Source: an uncultured Bacilli bacterium
GTDB taxonomy: Bacteria > Bacillota_I > Bacilli_A > RF39 > UBA660
Length of the DNA stretch: 54,208 nt
NCBI GenBank assembly: GCA_947601485.1
Contig: CANQGF010000002.1
Coordinates: 1 to 54,208 of the forward strand
Direction of reading: 5' to 3'
The notes beneath the pieces were generated by a model that was not told where the DNA came from, did no database searches, and worked only from the letters and a program-made list of their open reading frames with translations. Below, in pieces: positions 7,438-39,544 of the stretch (positions within the stretch are counted from its first letter, which is position 1; each line of letters starts with the position of its first letter). Position numbers and translations under genes: made by a program.

Positions 7438-8013
7438 GTGGAAAAGAAAAAATTAATTATTATAGAAGGACCTCAAGGCACTGGTAAAACAACTTTAGCT
7501 AATTATTTAAGAGAAAATTTACCAGGATCTAATCTATATCGTTTATCAGGCCAAAAAGATAAATCAAAAACTGGTAAAGATTTTAGTTCAAAAATGTATT
7601 ATGCTTTATTAGACTATTTAGAAAAAATGCAAGATATTCCGATGGATTTAGTTTTTGATCGAACATTTTTTACTGAAGAAATTTATGCTCGTTTAGGCTA
7701 TAAAGAATATTCTTTTACTGATATTTATGAAGATTTACTTCAAAGGTTTGATAACTTAAATTATGATATCTATTTTATTTGTCTTTATTTAGAAGATACT
7801 AATTTATATATTAAGAGATTAGCAAGAGAATCACATCATAATTATCAAAGTTTTAAAGTTGAAAATAGTGTTAATCAACAAAATGAATATATAAAAATGA
7901 GTAAAGAAATTGAAGAGAAATATTCTAATATTAAAGTGTTACGTTTAAAGATGGATGATTTTACAAATTCATATCAAGTTATTGACGATTTATTTGAAAT
8001 AAATAATAAATAA
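7438..8013 (+). CDS. P-loop nucleoside/nucleotide kinase, thymidylate-kinase-like
   Basis: GTG start after GGAGAG. Walker A is IIIEGPQGTGKTT. There is a DR-type motif (VFDRTFFTEEIYARL) and a basic lid-like segment (KRLARESHH). It is the last gene of the folD-glyA-thyA-folA operon. The specific substrate is not established. Confidence 0.45.
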   Translation: MEKKKLIIIEGPQGTGKTTLANYLRENLPGSNLYRLSGQKDKSKTGKDFSSKMYYALLDYLEKMQDIPMDLVFDRTFFTEEIYARLGYKEYSFTDIYEDLLQRFDNLNYDIYFICLYLEDTNLYIKRLARESHHNYQSFKVENSVNQQNEYIKMSKEIEEKYSNIKVLRLKMDDFTNSYQVIDDLFEINNK

Positions 8014-8061
8014 ATAGACTTTTGCCCCTTTTTTCTTTATAATACTATTGGAAGTGGAAAT

Positions 8062-10523
<2,462 letters not shown>

Positions 10524-29076: not shown

Positions 29077-30816
29077 TTAATCTCTTATTTTTATATGTAA
29101 TTCCCTTAATTGTTTTTCATCTAAAGTATTTGGACTACCCATGAGTAAATCAATACCAGAAACATTTGGTGGGAATACTTGTACTTCTCTTAAATTTTCT
29201 TCATCAGTTAAAAGCATAATAATCCGATCAATTCCCGGAGCCATTCCAGCATGAGGAGGAGCTCCGAATTGGAAAGCAGTATATAAACTTCTAAATTTAT
29301 TTTTAATAACCTCTTCATCATAACCAGCAATAGCAAAAGCTTTTTTCATAATTTCAATATCATGATTTCTTACTGCTCCTGAAGCCATTTCATTACCATT
29401 ACAAACGAAGTCATATTGATAAGCTACAATATCTTCAATATTACCTTCTTCTAAAGCTTTTAGACCACCTTTTGGCATACTAAATGGATTATGACCAAAA
29501 TCCCATTTATTATCTTCTTCATTATATTCATACATTGGGAAATCATTAATAATACAAAATTCAAAACGATTATGATCAATTAATTCTAATTCTTCACCTA
29601 ATTTAATTCTTAATATACCAGCTAATTTAGAAATATTTTTATCACCTGCTATAATAAATATTACATCATTATTTTCTAAATTTAATTCTTCTTTAAGACT
29701 ATTAATTTCATCTTCACTTAAAAATTTAGCTATTGATCCCTTTAATTCATTAGCGTCATTTTTAAGATAAGCAAGACCTAAAGCCCCTTTTTCTTTCATA
29801 TATTCTTCTAATTTTTTATACCAAGAATTAGGCTTTTCATAGGCTTTATAAGCATTACTAACTTTAATTGCTTTAACAATTTTGCCCTTAAAACCATTAA
29901 AGATACTATTTACAAATATATTACTAATATCAGTTATTTCTAAAGGATTTCTTAAATCTGGTTTATCTGAACCATATTTAGCTATTGCTTCTTTATAAGG
30001 GATTCTTCTAAATGGACGGGGTGATACTTCTTTATTACTAAATTTTTTAAATGTTTCATAGAAGACTTTTTCACCAATATTATAAATATCTTCTTCCGTA
30101 GCAAAACTCATTTCCATATCTAATTGATAAAATTCTAAAGTTCGATCAGCCCGACAATCTTCATCTCTAAAACATGGAGCAATTTGAAAATATTTATTAA
30201 AGCCAGAAACCATTAATAGTTGTTTATATATTTGAGGAGCTTGGGGCAAAGCATAAAATTTACCTTTATAATTTCTTGAAGGAATAACGAAATCTCTAGC
30301 TCCCTCTGGACTACTTGCTGTAATAATTGGGGTTGTAATTTCTGTAAATCCTTCATCTTTCATAATTTTTCTTAAAAAATCTATAACATGAACACGGAAT
30401 ATAATTTTATCATGTACTAAACTATTTCTTAAATCAAGATAACGATATTTAAGTCTAGTTTCTTCACTAGCATCTTTACTTCTAGCAATTTCAAAAGGTA
30501 AAATATTTTGACATTTACCTAATATTTCCATTTTTTCTAAAACAATTTCAATATCACCCGTAGGCATTTTGGGATTAACATCACTACGCATTCTAACGGT
30601 TCCTGTGATACTAGCAGTACTCTCTTTAGTGACTCCTTCAAAAAGTTTGATATCTTCACTAATAATTTGAACTATACCACTTTCATCACGTAAAGTCATG
30701 AAAATAAGACCACCTAAATTACGAATGGAATTAATCCAACCTGCTACTCTAACAACACTACCGACATCTTCTTTTCTAATTTCACCACAATAACGGTTAC
30801 GATATATATTTTCCAT
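29077..30816 (-). CDS. aspS: aspartate--tRNA ligase (bacterial type with GAD insertion)
   Basis: R..YCGE.R..DVG..V.V.GW, LPQAPQ.YKQLLM, CFRDED.RADR..EFYQLD.E, GGLK, GMAPGIDR. Confidence 0.96.
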   Translation of the reverse strand: MENIYRNRYCGEIRKEDVGSVVRVAGWINSIRNLGGLIFMTLRDESGIVQIISEDIKLFEGVTKESTASITGTVRMRSDVNPKMPTGDIEIVLEKMEILGKCQNILPFEIARSKDASEETRLKYRYLDLRNSLVHDKIIFRVHVIDFLRKIMKDEGFTEITTPIITASSPEGARDFVIPSRNYKGKFYALPQAPQIYKQLLMVSGFNKYFQIAPCFRDEDCRADRTLEFYQLDMEMSFATEEDIYNIGEKVFYETFKKFSNKEVSPRPFRRIPYKEAIAKYGSDKPDLRNPLEITDISNIFVNSIFNGFKGKIVKAIKVSNAYKAYEKPNSWYKKLEEYMKEKGALGLAYLKNDANELKGSIAKFLSEDEINSLKEELNLENNDVIFIIAGDKNISKLAGILRIKLGEELELIDHNRFEFCIINDFPMYEYNEEDNKWDFGHNPFSMPKGGLKALEEGNIEDIVAYQYDFVCNGNEMASGAVRNHDIEIMKKAFAIAGYDEEVIKNKFRSLYTAFQFGAPPHAGMAPGIDRIIMLLTDEENLREVQVFPPNVSGIDLLMGSPNTLDEKQLRELHIKIRD

Positions 30817-30824
30817 GTTACCTC

Positions 30825-32087
30825 CTACAAATTACTAATAATGTAATCGACAATTTCTCCTAAATCAACTTTAACTTCTTCTTTAGTATGATTATCTTTT
30901 ACATTAACTAAACCTTTTTTTAAATCTTCATTATTTAATATAACAAGTAATCTAGCATTTAAACGATCTGCTTCATTAAATTGGCCTTTTAAATTTTTAT
31001 TTAAAGAATTAGTTTCTGTAATTACACCATTGAGTCTTAAACTTTGAACAATATCTAAAGCATGTAATTTTTCTTCTTCAGAAACATACATTACATAACA
31101 ATCAATTTCTTTCTTTACATTTTTATATAAATCAATTTCTTTCATCATGGCAATTATGCGATCAATTCCACAGGCAAAGCCAATGCCATAAGAATCTTTT
31201 CCCCCTAATTCTTTAATTAATTTATTGTATCTACCGCCACCACCTAAAACGCTTTGTCTAGTTTCATCATTATCTAAAGATACTATTTCAAAAACGGTAT
31301 GATCATAATAATCAAGTCCTCTTACTATTTTAGGATTTACTTCATAATCAACTTCTAATAAGTCTAAATATTTTAAAACCGTTTCAAATCTTTTTTTAGC
31401 ATCACTTGTTAAATAATCTAAAGTTGTCGGAGCATTTTTTAAAATATCATTTGTAGCATCAACTTTACAATCTAAAATACGTAAAGGATTAGTTTTAAAT
31501 CTTTCTTTACAATCTTCACATAATTCATCTATATGAGGTTCTAAATATTTTACTAAAGCATTACGATAATTGCATCTTGATTCTTCATCACCTAAAGTAT
31601 TGATATTTACTTGTAAATTACTTATATGTAAAGACTCTAAAATTTTATATTGAAGACTAATTACTTCAGCATCAATGATGGGATCATTGCTACCTAAAAC
31701 TTCAACACCAAATTGGGTAAATTCACGTAATCTTCCAGCTTGTGGTCTTTCATAACGATACATAGTACCATTATAATAATATTTTTTAATATCAGGTTGA
31801 GCATATAATTTATTTTCTAAATAGCTTCTTACTACTCCCGCTGTTCCTTCCGGTCTTAAAGTTAAATTACGATCTCCTTTATCTTTAAAATCATATGTTT
31901 CTTTCTTAACTATATCAGAAGTTTCGCCAACACTACGGTGATATAATTCACTAGCTTCAAAAATTGGTGTTCTAATAAATTCATAGTTGTAATTACTCAT
32001 CATAGTACTTACAACTGAATTAACATATTCCCATAATAGAGCATCACTTCCCGTAATGTCGATGGTTCCTTTTGGTTTAGTTATCAT
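30825..32087 (-). CDS. hisS: histidine--tRNA ligase
   Basis: KGT.D, LRPEGTAGV.R, YRYERPQAGR.REF.Q.G.E, GGGRY..L, and a C-terminal anticodon-binding domain. Confidence 0.96.
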   Translation of the reverse strand: MITKPKGTIDITGSDALLWEYVNSVVSTMMSNYNYEFIRTPIFEASELYHRSVGETSDIVKKETYDFKDKGDRNLTLRPEGTAGVVRSYLENKLYAQPDIKKYYYNGTMYRYERPQAGRLREFTQFGVEVLGSNDPIIDAEVISLQYKILESLHISNLQVNINTLGDEESRCNYRNALVKYLEPHIDELCEDCKERFKTNPLRILDCKVDATNDILKNAPTTLDYLTSDAKKRFETVLKYLDLLEVDYEVNPKIVRGLDYYDHTVFEIVSLDNDETRQSVLGGGGRYNKLIKELGGKDSYGIGFACGIDRIIAMMKEIDLYKNVKKEIDCYVMYVSEEEKLHALDIVQSLRLNGVITETNSLNKNLKGQFNEADRLNARLLVILNNEDLKKGLVNVKDNHTKEEVKVDLGEIVDYIISNL

Positions 32088-32099
32088 TTTTAATCATCC

Positions 32100-32308
32100 T
32101 CTCTTTAAAAAATAAAAAGACCTAAACATATAAGGGTGAGAATATTCCCACGGTACCACCTTACTTTAGGTCTTAAATTTCATCACACTATGTGCGTTTC
32201 TATTTATCTAAAAGTGTCTTCTTTTATTATCCATTTTGACTTTTCCACCAACCGTCTTCTCTTTAAAATATTTATTAATAAAATACTCATCTTTCCATAG
32301 AAATTACT
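32100..32308 (-). promoter_or_regulatory. T-box riboswitch leader of the hisS-aspS-asnS-gatCAB cluster
   Basis: Features on the minus strand, in order:
- basal helix GAAAG/CTTTT
- GATGAGTA (GA/S-turn region)
- helix TTTTATTA/TAATAAAA
- AGAGA box and distal GGTGGAA
- specifier loop GAA-GAC-AC (plus-strand 32214-32218)
- T-box AAGGTGGTACCGTGGG (plus-strand 32147-32162)
- terminator AAGACCTAAA...TTTAGGTCTT plus T-run (32115-32174). Confidence 0.9.
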
Positions 32309-32314
32309 AAATTA

Positions 32315-32343
32315 ATTTTATTACTTTTTTTAATTATCGTCAA
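32315..32343 (-). promoter_or_regulatory. sigma-A promoter (TTGACG-17 nt-TAAAAT) of the T-box leader
   Basis: On the minus strand, TTGACG is at 32343-32338 and TAAAAT at 32320-32315, with an exact 17-nt spacer. Confidence 0.6.
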
Positions 32344-32355
32344 CCAAGAATTTGA

Positions 32356-32980
32356 TTATTTATGTAGAGTTTTCTTAAAACTGTCTAGTTGTTCTTCACT
32401 ATAGTAATCACTTAATAAATCTGCACAAACACCCTCTAAAGATTTAACCCATTCTTGTCCTATATAACATGCATATATTAAATCTTTTAAAGAAGTTTCT
32501 AATAAAATAATCTAATCCATATTGAGAATTTAATATTTTGATTGTGCCTAAATTAAATTCGTCAATAAATTTAATAATTTGGTCTTCAAAGTGACTATAA
32601 TCAGAATCATAAGGCAAAGAGAATTCTATAGTTTCATCATCATAATTAATATGTTTGTAAATACTTGTCTTATAAGTTAGATTAAAATTAGTAGATATTT
32701 TATATTCATTTGCATCTAAAGATTTAATATTCATTTGATTTTTTAATAAATTATTTTGAATAACAAATGGGATAAATTTATAAAAGAAAAAATATAAATT
32801 CTTTTTAAGACCAATAACACTTAATACTTCTTCAAAATTATCTCTATTAACAGAATTGTGACCATACTCACATAGTTCATCTCTTAACTGTTTTTGCCTA
32901 TTATATACAGCCTTTGTTCTTCTACTTATTTCATAATTTTCTTTTAAAACATCATATAAGTCTAAAGCCCCTTTATCCAC
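32356..32980 (-). pseudogene. hypothetical protein gene, apparently interrupted by a frameshift near its 3' end
   Basis: The track ORF 32444..32980 ends ...GLDYFIRNFFKRFNICMLYRTRMG*. A second frame is open from 32511 to a TAA at 32356-32358. It has no start codon and reads LETSLKDLIYACYIGQEWVKSLEGVCADLLSDYYSEEQLDSFKKTLHK, ending 12 nt before the hisS -35 box. The start codon (GTG 32980) is also uncertain. Confidence 0.45.
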
Positions 32981-33018
32981 CTTTCTTGCATTTTCCCTCT
33001 TTTCCGATACCTCTTTCT

Positions 33019-33756
33019 TTATTTTTTATATTTTTGTAATATACGCGATCCACAAGAAGCCTTTTCTAATGTAGACTCATAAGAGCCATTAACTAATCCT
33101 GATGCATGTAAGTCCCTAATATCACTTAGTTTAATGCTATTAAAATAGTCAATATTAAATAGTTTTAATTGATCAGTAATTTCTGCATCATTAATTTTTT
33201 CATATTTACCTTGTAATAATAATTGTAGTATTTGTAAACTTCTTGGTAGTTTAATAATGTTATGGACAAACAAATTGGTATCAGTTTGTGAATCATTTCT
33301 ATCTGATTCTGTTCTTAAAAGATAAAAATCTTGCATATTTTCTTCAACAATTCTCAATAATGGGATATTATCAAAATCACCATTAATGTATTGTTTAATT
33401 AGATTTATTTGATCTCTGCATATATCCAAGTTTTCAAGCCAGCCATTTTCTAAATATCTTTCACATTGTTCTTGTAATTCCGCAATGCTTTTTGTACCGA
33501 TTACTTCTCTTAGTATTGAAAATGTATTATATATCACCGGAGTCCATACATGGGTATTAAATTCAATATCATGTATAGATAATTCCTGTGAATTTACAAA
33601 TCGATTTCTAACTTTTTCGACATTAGTTATTAAATAATATAATAAATTATCTTTGCTTTTTTCAAGTACACTTCTTTTATATTCTTTTAATTCTTCTTTT
33701 TTAGCTTCAATAGTATATAAATCTATACTATCATTTTTTCTATCATATATATACAT
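33019..33756 (-). CDS. hypothetical protein, paralog A of a three-member tandem family
   Basis: 245 aa. The N-terminus MYIYDRKNDSIDLYTIEAKKEELKEYK and the C-terminal ~85 aa (IIKLPRSLQILQLLLQGKYEKIND.EITDQLKLFNIDY.NSIKLSDIRD...ILQKYKK) are nearly identical to the product of ORF 35533..36261. No family recognised. Confidence 0.7.
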   Translation of the reverse strand: MYIYDRKNDSIDLYTIEAKKEELKEYKRSVLEKSKDNLLYYLITNVEKVRNRFVNSQELSIHDIEFNTHVWTPVIYNTFSILREVIGTKSIAELQEQCERYLENGWLENLDICRDQINLIKQYINGDFDNIPLLRIVEENMQDFYLLRTESDRNDSQTDTNLFVHNIIKLPRSLQILQLLLQGKYEKINDAEITDQLKLFNIDYFNSIKLSDIRDLHASGLVNGSYESTLEKASCGSRILQKYKK

Positions 33757-33813
33757 GTTAATGCTCCTCGTATAATATTTTTTGTAATCAATTAATTTTG
33801 ATTACTTTGATAT

Positions 33814-33855
33814 AAATTTTATAATTTTTAGTTATAACTAAAAATTATAAAATTT
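33814..33855. repeat. perfect 42-bp palindrome
   Basis: AAATTTTATAATTTTTAGTTA|TAACTAAAAATTATAAAATTT has exact 21-bp arms with no spacer. It is preceded by a second 8-bp-stem hairpin, GTAATCAA-TTAATT-TTGATTAC (33784-33805). Confidence 0.9.
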
Positions 33856-33862
33856 TCGCTTT

Positions 33863-33891
33863 TTGACTGTTGGTAGTCTAATACTTATAAT
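33863..33891 (+). promoter_or_regulatory. near-consensus sigma-A promoter (TTGACT-17 nt-TATAAT) inside the IS110 left arm
   Basis: TTGACT at 33863-33868, exact 17-nt spacer, TATAAT at 33886-33891. It would drive a ~245-nt untranslated RNA ahead of the transposase ATG at 34143. Confidence 0.6.
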
Positions 33892-34142
33892 ATTTCTCTG
33901 AAATATTTTAGTTGAATGTAAAATTCTTTCGCTCCTTGCAACTTTGATTGCTTTTTTAAGACTGCTTCCTAACTTAAATCTATATTCTTCTAACTCAGAT
34001 GCTGCAACTCTTTAAGTAACATAGCATTTTACCTACTTAAAGATGATTGCTAATATGCGAGGTTGCTGTTATGGTTTAAGATTAGGCTACCACATTCATT
34101 TTAATATTTCACAAAATTCTTAATTAGAAAGGTGGTGATTTT

Positions 34143-35405
34143 ATGAATCAAACTTTATTTGTTGGTATTGATGTCTCTCTAAAATCTAATCAAGTTTGTG
34201 CAATAAATTTTAATCAAGACAAACTTCTTAATTTGTCTTTTGATAATACTCCATCTGGTTCAGATTCTTTAGTTAGTTCTATTTCTAACATTATGAACGA
34301 TCATCATTTCAATAAGGTTATCTTTGCTATGGAATGCACTGGTGTTTATTATATTCATATTGCTTCTTTTTTAAGCTCTAATCCTATTTTAAACACTCTT
34401 AATTCTGTTGTTTATACTGTTAATGCTAAAAGCATTGACAAATACAAAGATTCCTATATTGAAATAGAAAAAACTGATCCAGGTGATGCTTTTATCATTG
34501 CTGATTTTATTCGCGTAGGTCGTACTAATTCTTTATCTCCTTTTAAAGGTTCTCAGTTTCTTGCTTTGCAAAGATTAACTCGTCAAAGAAAACACCTTGC
34601 TGACCAAATTACTAAAGAAAAGTGTTATGTTTCTGCTAATATTTTTCTCAAATTCTCTGGTTTGGAAAATACTGATAATAAACCTTTTTCTAATAAATTT
34701 GGTAAATCTTCTTCTGCTATTTTAACTGAATTCCTTTCCATCGAAGATATCATTAATACTCCTATCGAAGATCTTGTCGATTTTATTTCTTCTAAGGGGA
34801 AAAATCGTTTTAAAAACCCAAAAAACAATGCTAATATTTTAGTTAAAGCTGCTAGAGATTCCTATAGACTTGATGCAGTTTCTTATGAAGCTGTTGGATC
34901 TGCTATTGCTTCTTCTTTAACCGTTATTGCTTGCCTTCAAAGTGAAATAAAAAGTATTGATAAGGCTATTTTGAAAGTTATCAAAGGTTTAGATTCTAAT
35001 GCTTATCATATCCTTTTATCCATTCCAGGCATTGGTCCAGTTTTTGCTGCTGGTATCTTGGCTGAGATTGTTGATGTTAATCTTTTTAAATCTCACAATC
35101 AACTTGCTAAATACGCTGGTTTCTATTGGCCTAGACATCAATCTGGTGAGTTTGAACATTCTGATAAACCTATGGCTAAATCTGCTAATATGTACCTTAA
35201 ATATTACATATCGGAAGCTACTTCTTTAATGATTTTTCATAACTCTGCTATGAAAAATTATTATCAAAACAAAGTTTCAGAAGTAAAAACTCATCAACAC
35301 AAACGTGCCCTCGCTCTTTCTTCTCGTAAATTAATTAGATTGATTTTTGGTTTGCTATGTAAAAATCAACTATACGTTCCAAGTGAATTTGATATTATGA
35401 ATTAG
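34143..35405 (+). CDS. IS110-family transposase/recombinase (DEDD RuvC-like N-domain plus Tnp C-domain)
   Basis: The N-terminus is LFVGIDVSLKSNQVCA (DEDD_Tnp_IS110 signature GIDV.K). The C-terminal Transposase_20 region is LLSIPGIGPVFAAGILAEI.D...F.....LAKYAG. RBS is AAAGGTGGTGA. Confidence 0.9.
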   Translation: MNQTLFVGIDVSLKSNQVCAINFNQDKLLNLSFDNTPSGSDSLVSSISNIMNDHHFNKVIFAMECTGVYYIHIASFLSSNPILNTLNSVVYTVNAKSIDKYKDSYIEIEKTDPGDAFIIADFIRVGRTNSLSPFKGSQFLALQRLTRQRKHLADQITKEKCYVSANIFLKFSGLENTDNKPFSNKFGKSSSAILTEFLSIEDIINTPIEDLVDFISSKGKNRFKNPKNNANILVKAARDSYRLDAVSYEAVGSAIASSLTVIACLQSEIKSIDKAILKVIKGLDSNAYHILLSIPGIGPVFAAGILAEIVDVNLFKSHNQLAKYAGFYWPRHQSGEFEHSDKPMAKSANMYLKYYISEATSLMIFHNSAMKNYYQNKVSEVKTHQHKRALALSSRKLIRLIFGLLCKNQLYVPSEFDIMN

Positions 35406-35532
35406 CCTTTTGCTAGCAAACACTTGTTCACGATGCTGAACAGGGCTTTTTGTCGTGTAATAATTTATTTGATATAGCAGTAAATTATTTAAATATCTGC
35501 TAATTTTTTTCTTGACATATTACCAGATGTCT

Positions 35533-36261
35533 TTATTTTTTATATTTTTGTAATATACGTGATCCACGAGACACTTTTTCTAATGTAGATTCATAAGATT
35601 CATTAGTTAATCCTGGTATGTGCGAATCTCTAATATCACTTAGTTTAATGCTATTATAATAATCAATATTAAATAGTTTTAGTTGATCAGTAATTTCCTC
35701 ATCATTTATTTTTTCATATTTACCTTGTAATAATAATTGCAGTACTTGTAAACTTCTCGGTAATTTAATAATGTTATCGACAAGCCAAAAGTCACCATAC
35801 ATAGTTGTTTTTGCTGCTTCTGTCCTTAAAAGATAAAAATCATGATTGTTTTCTTCAATAATTCTTATTAATGGAATATTATCAAAATCACCATTAATGT
35901 ACTGTTCAATTAAATTAATATGTTCTATGCATTCATCCTCTAGGTCTTCCCAACCAATTCCATGAAACCTTAAACATAATTCTCGTAAATATGCTATGTT
36001 TTTTGTACCACCACGGTTTCTTAAATTTGATTGAATTTTTCCAGGAATGGTCCACTGAGGACCATATACAATATCACTTATAGCTAATTCTTGTGAATTT
36101 ACAAATCGGTCTTTAGTTGTTTCTACACTAGTTATTAAATAATATAATAAATCTTCATCATTTGCTTCAATTATTTTTTGCTTATATTTTTTTAATTCTT
36201 CTTTTTTAGCTTCAATAGTATATCGATTTATACTATCATTTTTTCTATCATATATATACAT
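35533..36261 (-). CDS. hypothetical protein, paralog B of the tandem family
   Basis: 242 aa. Its ends are near-identical to paralog A at both protein and nucleotide level. The central ~110 aa are divergent. Confidence 0.7.
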   Translation of the reverse strand: MYIYDRKNDSINRYTIEAKKEELKKYKQKIIEANDEDLLYYLITSVETTKDRFVNSQELAISDIVYGPQWTIPGKIQSNLRNRGGTKNIAYLRELCLRFHGIGWEDLEDECIEHINLIEQYINGDFDNIPLIRIIEENNHDFYLLRTEAAKTTMYGDFWLVDNIIKLPRSLQVLQLLLQGKYEKINDEEITDQLKLFNIDYYNSIKLSDIRDSHIPGLTNESYESTLEKVSRGSRILQKYKK

Positions 36262-36273
36262 GTTAATTCTCCA

Positions 36274-36939
36274 CTATTTTCTTCTTTTTTGCAAAATGTG
36301 AGCATCTAATGCTGCCTTTTTCATAATATCTTCATAAGTATTTTGCATAAGACCTGCATCAATTAAATCTTTTAAGTCATTTTCAGTAAATGTTTTATAA
36401 TGATTTATATCGAATAAATCTAATTGTTCACTAATTGGTTCGTCTTGTAATTTATCAAATTTGCCTAAAAGTAGAAGATGCAATAGATATAGCTCTTTAG
36501 GCAATTCCATAACTTCTCTTAATATCCACGCATTATAATCGATTTGACTTACATCATTAGTTAAATAATAAAAGTTTTTTCCATTTGGAGTATTAGTAAT
36601 TTTAACAACCGGTCTTCTATCTTTAAAACCTTGAAGATACCTATCTATTAAATCATTTTCATTTATATATTGTTGAATTGTTTCATCATATTTACCATTA
36701 TAATTAAATAATTTAGTTAATAACGCTACTAAATTTTTATTATTGCCAATATTTGCATAATCAATTTCTGAAGAATTGGCAAATTGTTTAAGAACTTTTT
36801 CTTTTTTAGAAATAAGATAATAAAAATAATTTCTTTTTTTAAGATTTAATATTTCTTCACGATATCTTTTTAATTCTTCTTTTTTAGCCGTAATAGTATA
36901 TAAATCAATTCCACCATTGTTTTTATCAAGTATAATCAT
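36274..36939 (-). CDS. hypothetical protein, paralog C (more divergent) of the tandem family
   Basis: 221 aa. It shares the architecture D+.N..IDLYTI.AKKEELK.Y+ at the N-terminus and ELPKELYLLHLLLLGKFDKLQDEPISEQLDLFDINHY......DLKDL at the C-terminus. It lies 12 nt upstream of paralog B and 34 nt downstream of dtd. Confidence 0.7.
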   Translation of the reverse strand: MIILDKNNGGIDLYTITAKKEELKRYREEILNLKKRNYFYYLISKKEKVLKQFANSSEIDYANIGNNKNLVALLTKLFNYNGKYDETIQQYINENDLIDRYLQGFKDRRPVVKITNTPNGKNFYYLTNDVSQIDYNAWILREVMELPKELYLLHLLLLGKFDKLQDEPISEQLDLFDINHYKTFTENDLKDLIDAGLMQNTYEDIMKKAALDAHILQKRRK

Positions 36940-36973
36940 TTTTCAAAACTCCCTACAAGTGTTTATCTTAACA

Positions 36974-37417
36974 TTATTTATTTTTACTGTCAATGATAAT
37001 AGTTATGGGGCCATCATTTTCAATTTTAACGAGCATATCAGCCCCAAAAACACCGGTTACAGTTGGAACTATTTTATTTAATTCTTGATTAAAAGTATCA
37101 TATAAATTTATTGCTTCATCACCATTTAAAGCTTTAATATAGCTTGGACGATTACCCTTTTTTGTATCAGCATACAAAGTGAATTGACTAATTGATAAAA
37201 TACTTCCACCAGCGTCTAAAATACTTTTATTCATAACACCATTTTCATCATCAAAAATTCTTAAATTAACAATTTTTTTAACTATGTAATTTATATCTTC
37301 TATCGTATCATCTAAAGTAAAACATGAAAATATAACTAAACCATTATTAATTTGATTATATATTTGATTATTAATCGAAACACTACTACATTTACTTCTT
37401 TGAATAACTACTTTCAT
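36974..37417 (-). CDS. dtd: D-aminoacyl-tRNA deacylase
   Basis: MKVVIQR......V, SQFTLYADT+KG.RPS, GADM.V...NDGP.T. Abuts the relA stop. Confidence 0.93.
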   Translation of the reverse strand: MKVVIQRSKCSSVSINNQIYNQINNGLVIFSCFTLDDTIEDINYIVKKIVNLRIFDDENGVMNKSILDAGGSILSISQFTLYADTKKGNRPSYIKALNGDEAINLYDTFNQELNKIVPTVTGVFGADMLVKIENDGPITIIIDSKNK

Positions 37418-39544
37418 TTATGCTATAACCTCAACATTTTTAAAACGACTTAATTTATTTTTAAAACGATCTAATTCTTCTTTATCATTAACTTTAACTA
37501 ATAATTCACAAATTGTGCCATTATCAATATCTTTATTTTTAAACTCGGCAATCGTTATTTTTTCTTTCGTAGCAAGAGCAATTAAATCAGCAAGAAAATT
37601 ATTATTATTAACTAACATGGTAATATTAGTATAATAACTATTGTTAGCTAAAGGATTCCAAGAAATATCAATTAATCTTAAATTACTATCTTTAATATTA
37701 GGACAGTTTTTTTTATGAACAGATATACCTTCTCCTTTAGTAATAAAACCTTTGATTTCATCGCCTTTAACTGGCTTGCAACATTTAGCTAAGTTGTACA
37801 TGATATTAGTATTGCCATCAACTATAATATCGTCATTTGATTTAATAATATTTGTATTTGGTTTTAATTTTTCTATTAAAATATCATCAATATTATGCTT
37901 ATCTTCACTGCTTAAATTAATTATATATCCTGCTGTATATCTTAAAGAGCCGATTGATAAATATAAATCTTCTAAATTATTTAATTTTAAATCTTTAAGA
38001 ATTTTACTTAAATTTTTATCATTAATAACATCACTATAACCTAGCTTTCTTTTTCTAATTTCTTTTTCTAATATATTTTTACCTTTAGCTATGATTTCTT
38101 CTCGATCTTTTTTACTAAAGAAAGCTTTAATTTTAGCTTTAGCTTGTTCGGTTTTGACAAAACTTAACCAATCATTACTTGGAACAGCATCTTTATTAGT
38201 AATAATTTTAACAACATCGTTATTTTGTAATTCATATGATAAAGGAACAATATTGTCATTAACAATAGCTCCGACTGTTGTATCGCCAACTTTACTATGA
38301 ATACGGTAGGCAAAATCGATTGGTGTAGCATCTTTTGGAAGTTCAATTACATCTCCTTTAGGAGTATAAACATAAATAAGTTCCCCTAAAATGTTACTAT
38401 GCATTGTCATTTCAAAAGAGTCATCGTTTTCATCACTGGCAGACTCAATGATATTACGAAATAATTCTAGTTTTTGTTCCATAATTGCTTGGATTTTTTT
38501 TACACCATGTTCCTTATAAGACCAATGGGATGCAATACCTTTTTCATCAATTTCATCCATTTCATATGTTCTAACTTGAATTTCATAAAATTTACCATCA
38601 TCTCCAAAGACAGTGGTATGTAAACTTTGATACATATTTTCTTTAGGATTAGCAACATAATCTTTAAATCTTTTGGGAACAGGACGATATTTAGAATGAA
38701 TTAAACCTATTACGGTATAACATTCAGTTTCAGTTTTAACAAAAACTCGTAACGCTAAAATATCATAAATATTATCCCAACTTTTTCCTGATTGTAATTT
38801 ATTATAAATACTATAAATACTTTTAACTCTTCCTTTAATTTCATGAGTTATGCCATTTTCAATTAAAAGATGGGAAATATCTTCTTTCATCTTTTGTAAA
38901 TTGTCATTTAATTCACTGGTAGTGTTATTTAATTTTTCTAAAATATCATTATAAACTTCCGGCTTTAAGATTTGTAAACATAAATTTTCCATTTCACTTT
39001 TAATGGAATTAATCCCTAAACGATGGGCAATCGGAACTAATATATCCATTGTTTCTTTAGCTGTTGCTTTACGACTTTTTTCAGATACGGCAAAACTAGT
39101 TCGCAAATTATGTAAGCGATCAGCTAATTTAATAAATAAAACTCGTGGATCTTCCGATAAACCAACTAAAACTTTTCTTAAATATATTTTAGAATTTTCC
39201 GTTTCATCAGTTAGTTCTAACTTATTAATTTTAGAAACATTTTCTACGATTAAAGCTACATCTTTACCAAATTTTTCTTCGAGAATTTCTTTAGTTGCGG
39301 TATTACCTTTATCGAGTACATCATGGAGAATTGCCGCAATTATGGTGGTATCATCAACATTTAAAGAAGTTAATATAAGAGCAACATGTAAAGGATGCGT
39401 AATATAATCATCACCTGAATGTCTTTTTTTACCAGCATATTCATTACATGCAAAAAGATATGCTTCTTTAATTTTTAGAAGTGTTTCTTCATTAAAATTT
39501 AATTTATCATAAATTGTTTCAAAGTTTATTTCTGTATCTTTCAT
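37418..39544 (-). CDS. relA: bifunctional (p)ppGpp synthetase/hydrolase RelA/SpoT (Rel)
   Basis: HD hydrolase domain (R.SG..YI.HPL.VA.IL, HD..D). The synthetase core is YRPVPKRFKDY.A.PK.N.YQSLHTTV. TGS domain (VYTPKG....LP.GATP.DFAY..H) and C-terminal ACT domain are present. Confidence 0.96.
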   Translation of the reverse strand: MKDTEINFETIYDKLNFNEETLLKIKEAYLFACNEYAGKKRHSGDDYITHPLHVALILTSLNVDDTTIIAAILHDVLDKGNTATKEILEEKFGKDVALIVENVSKINKLELTDETENSKIYLRKVLVGLSEDPRVLFIKLADRLHNLRTSFAVSEKSRKATAKETMDILVPIAHRLGINSIKSEMENLCLQILKPEVYNDILEKLNNTTSELNDNLQKMKEDISHLLIENGITHEIKGRVKSIYSIYNKLQSGKSWDNIYDILALRVFVKTETECYTVIGLIHSKYRPVPKRFKDYVANPKENMYQSLHTTVFGDDGKFYEIQVRTYEMDEIDEKGIASHWSYKEHGVKKIQAIMEQKLELFRNIIESASDENDDSFEMTMHSNILGELIYVYTPKGDVIELPKDATPIDFAYRIHSKVGDTTVGAIVNDNIVPLSYELQNNDVVKIITNKDAVPSNDWLSFVKTEQAKAKIKAFFSKKDREEIIAKGKNILEKEIRKRKLGYSDVINDKNLSKILKDLKLNNLEDLYLSIGSLRYTAGYIINLSSEDKHNIDDILIEKLKPNTNIIKSNDDIIVDGNTNIMYNLAKCCKPVKGDEIKGFITKGEGISVHKKNCPNIKDSNLRLIDISWNPLANNSYYTNITMLVNNNNFLADLIALATKEKITIAEFKNKDIDNGTICELLVKVNDKEELDRFKNKLSRFKNVEVIA

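Follow-up and report, generated by a model that had tools for sequence, protein, structure and literature searches.

Two kinds of gene array described previously come closest to the locus reported here. One is the type VII secretion immunity arrays of Firmicutes, where esaG (DUF600) or tipC is present as a series of tandem paralogs that are not identical and encode small cytoplasmic proteins (Garrett et al. 2022, PMC9484751). The paralogs have stretches of high nucleotide similarity, at the 5′ and 3′ ends in tipC and at three places in esaG, and homologous recombination via these stretches explains the gain and loss of copies (PMC9484751). In the acquired interbacterial defense (AID) clusters of gut Bacteroidales, orphan immunity genes without cognate toxins are arrayed on mobile elements with recombinases, are exchanged between species, and protect these Gram-negative bacteria against type VI toxins (bioRxiv 10.1101/471110; PMC12247911). 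Here, we describe an array of two orphan gene families, which we call X and Y, in a 54,208-nt contig stretch of an uncultured Bacilli bacterium from a rabbit gut metagenome (the whole stretch is referred to as the window). The array lies between dtd and the T-box-like leader of hisS, and the reading that we favor, with moderate confidence, is that it is a hypervariable, recombining, and horizontally exchanged accessory island of one rabbit-gut Bacilli lineage.

The X/Y array resembles the esaG and tipC arrays in that X has three conserved blocks, in that a crossover within a shared block can be traced, and in the copy-number differences between close relatives. Unlike esaG and tipC, X matched neither a Pfam family in sequence nor a PDB structure in fold, immunity families included, and no type VII secretion system, LXG, WXG100, or toxin gene was found beside the X/Y arrays in the loci seen. 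Furthermore, two unrelated families are interleaved in the X/Y array, and the island is located between housekeeping genes rather than in a secretion locus; an immunity role is something that we infer. Like the AID clusters, the X/Y locus would be an array of immunity-like genes in gut bacteria that has no cognate toxins and is exchanged between species; here, the cassettes of different species resemble one another more than their core genes do. The host, however, belongs to a Gram-positive-type Bacilli lineage, the families are unrelated to those of the AID clusters, and, other than an intruding IS110 element, the array has neither an integrase nor a recombinase. Evolution of this kind has precedents in the esaG/tipC arrays and the AID clusters, whereas both families and the fold that X appears to have are new.

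A sequence-only reading of the window had recognized three homologous same-strand open reading frames (ORFs) of 221, 242, and 245 amino acids (aa) as a tandem array inserted into the relA–dtd/hisS–aspS synteny, and both the insertion and the coordinates were confirmed. The gene order on the − strand is relA, dtd, X paralog C, X paralog B, a 1,776-nt gap, X paralog A, ORF178, hisS, aspS, and asnS. The members of the array and the two genes that enclose it are as follows:

36974..37417, − strand: dtd, the upstream neighbor of the island
36274..36939, − strand: X paralog C, an ORF of 221 aa (E = 3e-86 with the X-family hidden Markov model, HMM)
35533..36261, − strand: X paralog B (type B), an ORF of 242 aa
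33019..33756, − strand: X paralog A (type A), an ORF of 245 aa
32356..32998, − strand: decayed Y gene, identified by the Y-family HMM, a start-codon change, and a frameshift
32444..32980, − strand: ORF178, the mechanically called ORF of the decayed Y gene
30825..32087, − strand: hisS, the downstream neighbor of the island

The spacers are as short as had been stated (34 nt between dtd and C, and 12 nt between C and B), and, also in agreement with the sequence-only reading, no terminator-like site was found on the − strand from dtd to the hisS leader. On these grounds, the sequence-only reading had predicted that the array may be co-transcribed with relA–dtd.

The similarity between paralogs A and B was evaluated along the length of the gene. 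The two proteins are 68% identical, and C is more diverged, as had been proposed, with 35–36% identity to A or B; C is of a short type that, in the alignment, does not have the ~21-residue insertion present in A and B at residues ~65–85. The A–B nucleotide identity was 95% for codons 1–20, fell to 53–63% for codons 61–110, rose to 85–89% for codons 111–150, fell again to 56% for codons 151–170, and was 92–93% for codons 171–210. Therefore, the divergence is non-uniform along the gene and the nucleotide mosaic is real, but X contains three conserved blocks (5′, a middle block at codons ~116–150 that had been missed, and 3′) and not just two conserved ends around a variable core. The ends were also described previously as nearly identical, which is true of the first 24 codons (22/24 identical, and 95.8% over the first 72 nt) but overstated for the first 60 codons (42/60) and the last 85 (71/85). 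The segments 33019–33260 and 35533–35775, which the sequence-only reading had singled out, are 88.1% identical at the nucleotide level, the same value as for the 3′ 243 nt of A and B. The 5′ block is common to C as well as to A and B, such that the locus has the distinguishing property of recombining arrays, namely non-identical tandem paralogs with shared blocks of nucleotide homology.

The shape of this profile recurs throughout the family. Across 116 distant X homologs, conservation was high at residues 1–30, 121–130, 161–200, and 231–245 and low at residues 61–120 and 151–160, the same as in the A–B profile, and so the pattern of conserved ends and variable core is mainly a family-wide constraint. 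A and B are also not recent products in this genome. In quartets of A, B, and their orthologs in related metagenome-assembled genomes (MAGs; L008, L001, and L009, introduced below), 83/91 informative sites supported orthology, whereas the within-genome grouping of A with B was supported by 5/91 sites, 3 of which are in the first 22 nt. A recent whole-gene homogenization of A and B within the genome was therefore rejected, and on this count of sites, A and B are long-standing types that different species have retained.

Superimposed on this pattern are signs of exchange between copies. In the conserved blocks, the synonymous divergence (dS) between A and B was 0.36, compared to 0.70 in the variable blocks, and type A and type B genes from two other genomes showed the same contrast, whereas dS between orthologs was uniform over the variable and conserved parts (0.17–0.28). 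Silent divergence between X types was lowest in the first ~30–45 codons. Considering only codons for identical amino acids, C and A had 1/17 synonymous differences in the first 30 codons compared to 28/62 in the rest of the gene (p = 0.0035), and C and B had 1/16 compared to 30/58 (p = 0.0012); for A and B, the values were 1/31 in the first 45 codons and 28/131 in the rest (p = 0.018). This 5′ depletion was not seen between orthologs, and therefore a constraint on the 5′ end of the mRNA is an unlikely cause.

Arrays of X and Y genes were found in the same dtd–hisS gap of four other MAGs from rabbit gut, all labeled "uncultured Bacilli". Read in the direction from dtd to hisS, they are composed as follows:

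Window: X X (IS110) X Y, the Y gene being broken
L001: Y Y X X Y X Y Y Y
L008: Z Y Y X Y Y Y Y
L011: Z Y X X Y Y Y
L009: Z … X Y, where the contig ends

Copy number and order differ among all five arrays. The X types A, B, and C are present in the window and a fourth, type D, is present in L001 and L011; the only Y gene of the window is the pseudogene. Orthologs of B are located in L001 (10001-10732) and L009 (10084-10812), with 82–83% amino acid and 89–90% nucleotide identity, and an ortholog of A in L008 (10001-10741), with 86% amino acid and 89.9% nucleotide identity. An X gene followed ~20 nt later by a Y gene recurs in the window, L001, L008, L009, and L011.

A comparison of two of these arrays revealed a crossover. 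L011 reads X_D–Y5 at the place where L001 reads X_D–Y6–X_B–Y5, and the L011 junction follows the L001 X_D–Y6 sequence to alignment column ~717 and the X_B–Y5 sequence from column ~777, being identical to both in between. The exchange thus falls in a ~60-nt block consisting of the 3′ end of X, the spacer, and the 5′ start of Y, which is the mechanism described for the esaG/tipC arrays (PMC9484751). Taken together, this breakpoint within a shared block, the copy-number changes among the five arrays, and the heterogeneity of dS indicate that recombination between copies contributes to the mosaic. The proposal of the sequence-only reading that the genes diversify by gene conversion therefore stands in part: the dS contrast, the 5′ synonymous depletion, and the crossover are in its favor, but the shape is mainly family-wide, A and B are old types, and there is no excess of non-synonymous change between orthologs.

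The cassettes also differ from their surroundings in apparent age. Between the window and the MAGs, third-position identity was 63–75% for the core genes dtd, hisS, and relA but 84–89% for the X_A, X_B, and Y6 cassettes, and because the cassettes are closer than the core genes at silent sites, they have a more recent common ancestor than their host genomes. For the flanking core genes, dS was 0.5–0.97 and the ratio of non-synonymous to synonymous divergence (ω) was 0.08–0.16, whereas changes in the cassettes were spread evenly over the three codon positions, with ω of 0.2–0.7. On these ratios, the cassettes are under weaker protein constraint than the flanking genes.

The sequence-only reading had noted one unrelated gene beside the three paralogs. 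Between dtd and hisS, there are in fact two further genes, an IS110 transposase, which had been missed, and ORF178. ORF178 was found to be a member of the second repeated orphan family, Y (Y-family HMM E = 6e-59), and a profile–profile comparison showed X and Y to be unrelated to each other. The ancestral ATG of this Y gene is now AGG at 32998, and a 5-nt deletion near 32500 shifts the frame such that the ~45 C-terminal residues, the most conserved part of the protein, are out of frame, the C-terminus continuing in the +1 frame. A contig of run X4, from a second rabbit sample, has an extra AATAA after 32500, and inserting AATAA restores a full-length Y; the frameshift is therefore polymorphic in the population. 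In independent assemblies of the source sample, the frameshifted form was reproduced without differences at a depth of ~57. Decay is under way in the window, as is seen in the IS110 insertion and the broken Y. In L001, the short-type X copy at 7878-8501 ends early compared to other short-type X copies, with the tail "...INSKYASKCL", which suggests that an array member is decaying in a genome other than that of the window as well.

As in X, the Y copies share conserved ends. Synonymous differences are no rarer in the C-terminal conserved block than elsewhere in the gene, and so the conservation of this block is attributed to selection. Searches of Y against Pfam, PHROGs, NCBIfam, and PADLOC found nothing consistent, and a structure model (mean predicted local distance difference test, pLDDT, of 72 from 4 sequences) had no Foldseek match in PDB at E < 0.05. 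An all-against-all comparison of loci found no Y near the distant X homologs outside the rabbit clade. Three proteins were considered as hidden Y homologs, one encoded upstream of the X gene of locus L004, one encoded downstream in L021, and the extra domain of a fused X homolog, and none of them is Y.

A word-indexed search found only 13 X clusters, whereas 369 representative clusters (E ≤ 1e-3) were recovered in an exhaustive search with HMMER, 248 of them at E ≤ 1e-10; almost every cluster represents a single-domain protein of 210–250 aa. The family had been called unrecognised, and this was upheld by four HMM libraries (Pfam, NCBIfam, PHROG, and PADLOC), none of which gave a consistent match. 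A, B, and C had no Pfam match at E ≤ 0.1, and when 116 homologs were scanned singly against Pfam at E ≤ 1, no family was common to more than 4 members. There was no match in the NCBIfam and PHROG libraries, and PADLOC gave a lone weak match of A to AbiLi (E = 0.0049), with no model matched by more than 2/116 members. None of the X homolog clusters carries a Pfam domain or a name, and no homolog was found in phages and plasmids by tblastn or in an IMG/VR scan.

Outside the rabbit clade, X was single-copy at 9/9 loci examined, in mutually unrelated contexts, and no known role is attached to these homologs. In one locus, X follows pilD and lies beside IS1595 in a pilus-like cluster; in others, it follows tsaD, stands alone between long spacers, follows ddl and 2-thiouracil desulfurase genes, or precedes a gene for a protein in which a histidine-triad-like HxHxH motif was read by eye. 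An all-against-all BLAST comparison of 14 loci found no neighbor conserved between loci. The pilus-like cluster (L004, 6136-13616) is of the type IV kind and encodes, in this order, T2SSF, a prepilin peptidase, a 268-aa membrane-anchored protein, X (237 aa), an IS1595 transposase, and a T2SSE ATPase; a link of X to pili was dropped because this arrangement was not repeated at any other locus. In L020 (2039-3424, protein P0107), X is fused to an extra helical domain of ~240 aa that has no database match, and the fused gene is located downstream of genes for an AAA_14/DUF4143 ATPase and a Phd/YefM antitoxin.

An AlphaFold2 model of A was confident (pLDDT 87, predicted template modeling score 0.83) and shows an α/β protein, with weak segments at residues 61–80 and 151–160. 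No structural relative was found for this model by Foldseek, either in PDB (best E 1.7, template modeling score ~0.1) or in BFVD (best E 0.47), and a profile search of PDB sequences with X found nothing (best E 0.21). Hydrophobic residues occupy nearly all of the strongly conserved positions in the 116 homologs, with "LPxxLYLLQLLxxGxF" and "QLxLFxI" as the main motifs. Conserved polar residues are confined to a few positions (K/R, T, Q, G, P, and one D/N), and no His, Cys, Ser, or Glu is conserved, which speaks against an enzyme and for a protein that binds or acts as a scaffold.

Mollicutes have vsp, vlp, and vsa surface-lipoprotein arrays, in which tandem paralogs with conserved ends and variable middles occur in A+T-rich genomes, and in these features the X paralogs are similar. 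Unlike the surface lipoproteins, neither X nor Y was found to have a signal peptide, lipobox, or membrane segment, and there are no internal tandem repeats, invertible promoter, or recombinase. The maximum hydropathy of A, B, C, and Y (Kyte–Doolittle, 19-residue window) was ~1.0 and the N-termini are polar; X and Y are mostly acidic, with an isoelectric point of about 5–6 for X. Both proteins are predicted to be soluble and cytoplasmic.

The gap between B and A is occupied by a mobile element, with the following features:

33770..35530 (ends approximate), + strand: IS110-family insertion sequence between B and A, in the opposite orientation to them
34143..35405, + strand: IS110 transposase ORF, preceded by a non-coding 5′ region of ~270 nt

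The transposase matched DEDD_Tnp_IS110 (2.6e-27; the N-domain) and Transposase_20 (1.5e-18; the C-domain) in Pfam and the NCBIfam model "IS110 family RNA-guided transposase" (NF033542; 7.6e-59, 199.6 bits compared to a cut-off of 140), which places it in the IS110 family. The similarity to spacers that separate X from Y in other arrays ends 3 nt past the B stop codon and ~14 nt before the A start codon, and no remnant of Y or another gene was found in the gap; therefore, the element fills essentially the whole B–A spacer. There is no second IS110 copy within the window. The ~270-nt stretch ahead of the ORF could be a candidate guide-RNA locus of the family. As a structured RNA, this region was rejected, the predicted fold being no better than that of shuffled sequences (z = −1.1). 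The best promoter-like match of the region, TTGACT-17-TATAAT, lies in this 5′ stretch (33863-33891).

The edges of the island are defined by these features:

39544..37418, − strand: relA
36940..36973, − strand: dtd–C spacer of 34 nt, from the dtd stop to the C start; the upstream edge of the island
32343..32315, − strand: hisS promoter-like site, just ahead of the T-box leader
32307..32129, − strand: hisS T-box-like leader (RF00230, 56.2 bits, E = 5e-11, below the Rfam gathering score of 93)

The promoter-like site and the T-box leader together (32129..32343) form the downstream edge. The T-box match spans the full-length model and carries the AGAGA and GGUGGUACC motifs; with a full-length match at 56 bits compared to a gathering score of 93, T-box leaders of such an A+T-rich lineage may routinely escape default thresholds. 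At the upstream edge, the other MAGs have either a 243-nt gap or an orphan gene, Z, directly after dtd (7606-8709 in L008, 8179-9285 in L009, and 7543-8700 in L011; absent from the window and L001). The Z protein is ~367 aa long and Cys-rich, with the motifs CQICGGKCCLDSSC and SKCSHLSDxGC, and had no match in Pfam or NCBIfam. Beyond hisS, the adjoining gene encodes an AspRS of 579 aa in the window (29077-30816, − strand), compared to 429 aa in L001 (14283-15572) and L011 (15611-16900), which looks like a swap of one AspRS type for another among close relatives; L011 has an additional gap of ~1.3 kb at this site.

Several other explanations of the array were weighed. In one, constraint is all that is at work: the tolerance of the fold would set the conserved ends and variable core, and old duplicates would diverge independently with no real recombination. 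The 116-homolog information profile shaped like the A–B identity profile, the coincidence of the low-pLDDT segments with the variable stretches, the preponderance of sites favoring orthology over within-genome homogenization, and the Y C-terminal block as rich in synonymous differences as the rest of Y all fit this account. It leaves unexplained a between-type dS that is about 2-fold higher in the variable blocks while ortholog dS is uniform, the 5′ block of C that is nearly without synonymous change relative to A and B and has no equivalent between orthologs, and the clean crossover inside a shared block, and we consider constraint on its own unlikely. A mis-joined or collapsed assembly of repeated genes is extremely improbable: although Logan unitigs break at the conserved blocks, where spurious short-sided joints are numerous, the whole stretch is reproduced in Logan assemblies made independently from three runs of the same sample, long pieces of runs X1 and X2 cross the X and Y genes without differences (the Y frameshift region being the one covered at the depth given above), and four other MAGs have arrays between the same flanking genes.

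The two remaining alternatives concern what the genes are for. That X and Y form a duplicated toxin–antitoxin or other two-gene defense module is suggested by the small adjacent genes with short spacers in a variable region, as in type II toxin–antitoxin modules, by the recurrent X-then-Y order in all five arrays, and by the distant fused X that follows the ATPase and Phd/YefM antitoxin genes. In contrast to type II modules, there is no obligate bicistronic pairing and there are no fixed partner types: type A is followed by Y6 or Y4, type D by Y6 or Y5, and type B by Y5 or Y8, depending on the genome, and runs of Y without X and of X without Y occur. In the window, one family decays and the other stays, Y having lost its start codon and frame beside three intact X copies. 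Because there is no fixed type pairing, because Y is broken beside intact X, and because distant X genes have no Y near them, X appears to be independent of Y; the PADLOC matches were also inconsistent across members. The module is therefore largely refuted by the anatomy of the locus, and we regard it as very improbable. It is harder to dismiss the idea that X is a lineage-specific structural or regulatory protein of the cell, normally single-copy, with the array an incidental local amplification that has no adaptive meaning. The 369 clusters of almost exclusively single-domain proteins of 210–250 aa, the single copy at all nine outside loci, often on the same strand after housekeeping genes (tsaD; ddl/2-thiouracil desulfurase), and the absence of X from the phage, plasmid, and IMG/VR collections are what such a protein would lead one to expect. 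The lack of a neighbor conserved between loci is not, nor are the higher ω of the cassettes relative to the flanking genes, cassettes closer between species than core genes, distinct X types kept across species, or copies that are truncated (L001 7878-8501) or interrupted by an insertion sequence (the window array), and we hold this explanation to be doubtful.

In the reading that we favor, a recombining and horizontally exchanged island, homologous recombination via the conserved blocks, by unequal crossover and short gene-conversion tracts, would expand, contract, and reshuffle the array, and cassettes would pass between related species. X would be a non-enzymatic binding protein, with its specificity residing in a variable helical hairpin and two loops (residues ~61–115 and ~150–163), and by analogy with esaG and tipC, it may act like an immunity or neutralizing protein against polymorphic toxins or other invaders. 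Such an immunity-like binding role is the most economical guess as to the function of X, and it is offered tentatively, as a guess that we would not expect to hold in most such cases. A broader proposal is that X and Y are two undescribed folds that form an island of orphan immunity or self/non-self specificity genes, a Firmicute counterpart of the Bacteroidales AID clusters that uses the dtd–hisS gap as a hot-spot, is passed between species, and is recombined via homology blocks; as a whole, we think this proposal is rather doubtful.

Several observations weigh against the island as we read it and against its proposed function. No toxin, secretion-system, or defense gene was found beside X or Y in the window and ~14 related loci. 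The single-copy X genes outside the rabbit clade, often in housekeeping surroundings, fit a lineage-specific cellular role as well as they fit immunity. Ortholog comparisons gave an ω below 1 for the variable part too (0.3–0.7), and so there is no signature of positive selection. The dS contrasts come from few sites (~40–100 synonymous ones in each class), the two comparisons of type A with type B lack independence, and the extreme A+T codon bias could distort dS. Just one clean crossover is documented, and the L001/L011 event could be a deletion or an insertion, either direction being compatible with it.

If the proposed role is true, two new families, one with a confident fold that has no structural relative, would join the polymorphic, horizontally shared protective genes of gut bacteria, and the locus would show that arrays of this sort can occupy a gap in a housekeeping operon without linked toxin, secretion, or mobile-element machinery. 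If the role is false, the locus is still a compact natural case of conserved gene ends driving the expansion, contraction, and cross-species exchange of paralogs. Regardless of the role, an uncharacterized family of about 370 clusters, X, has been flagged.

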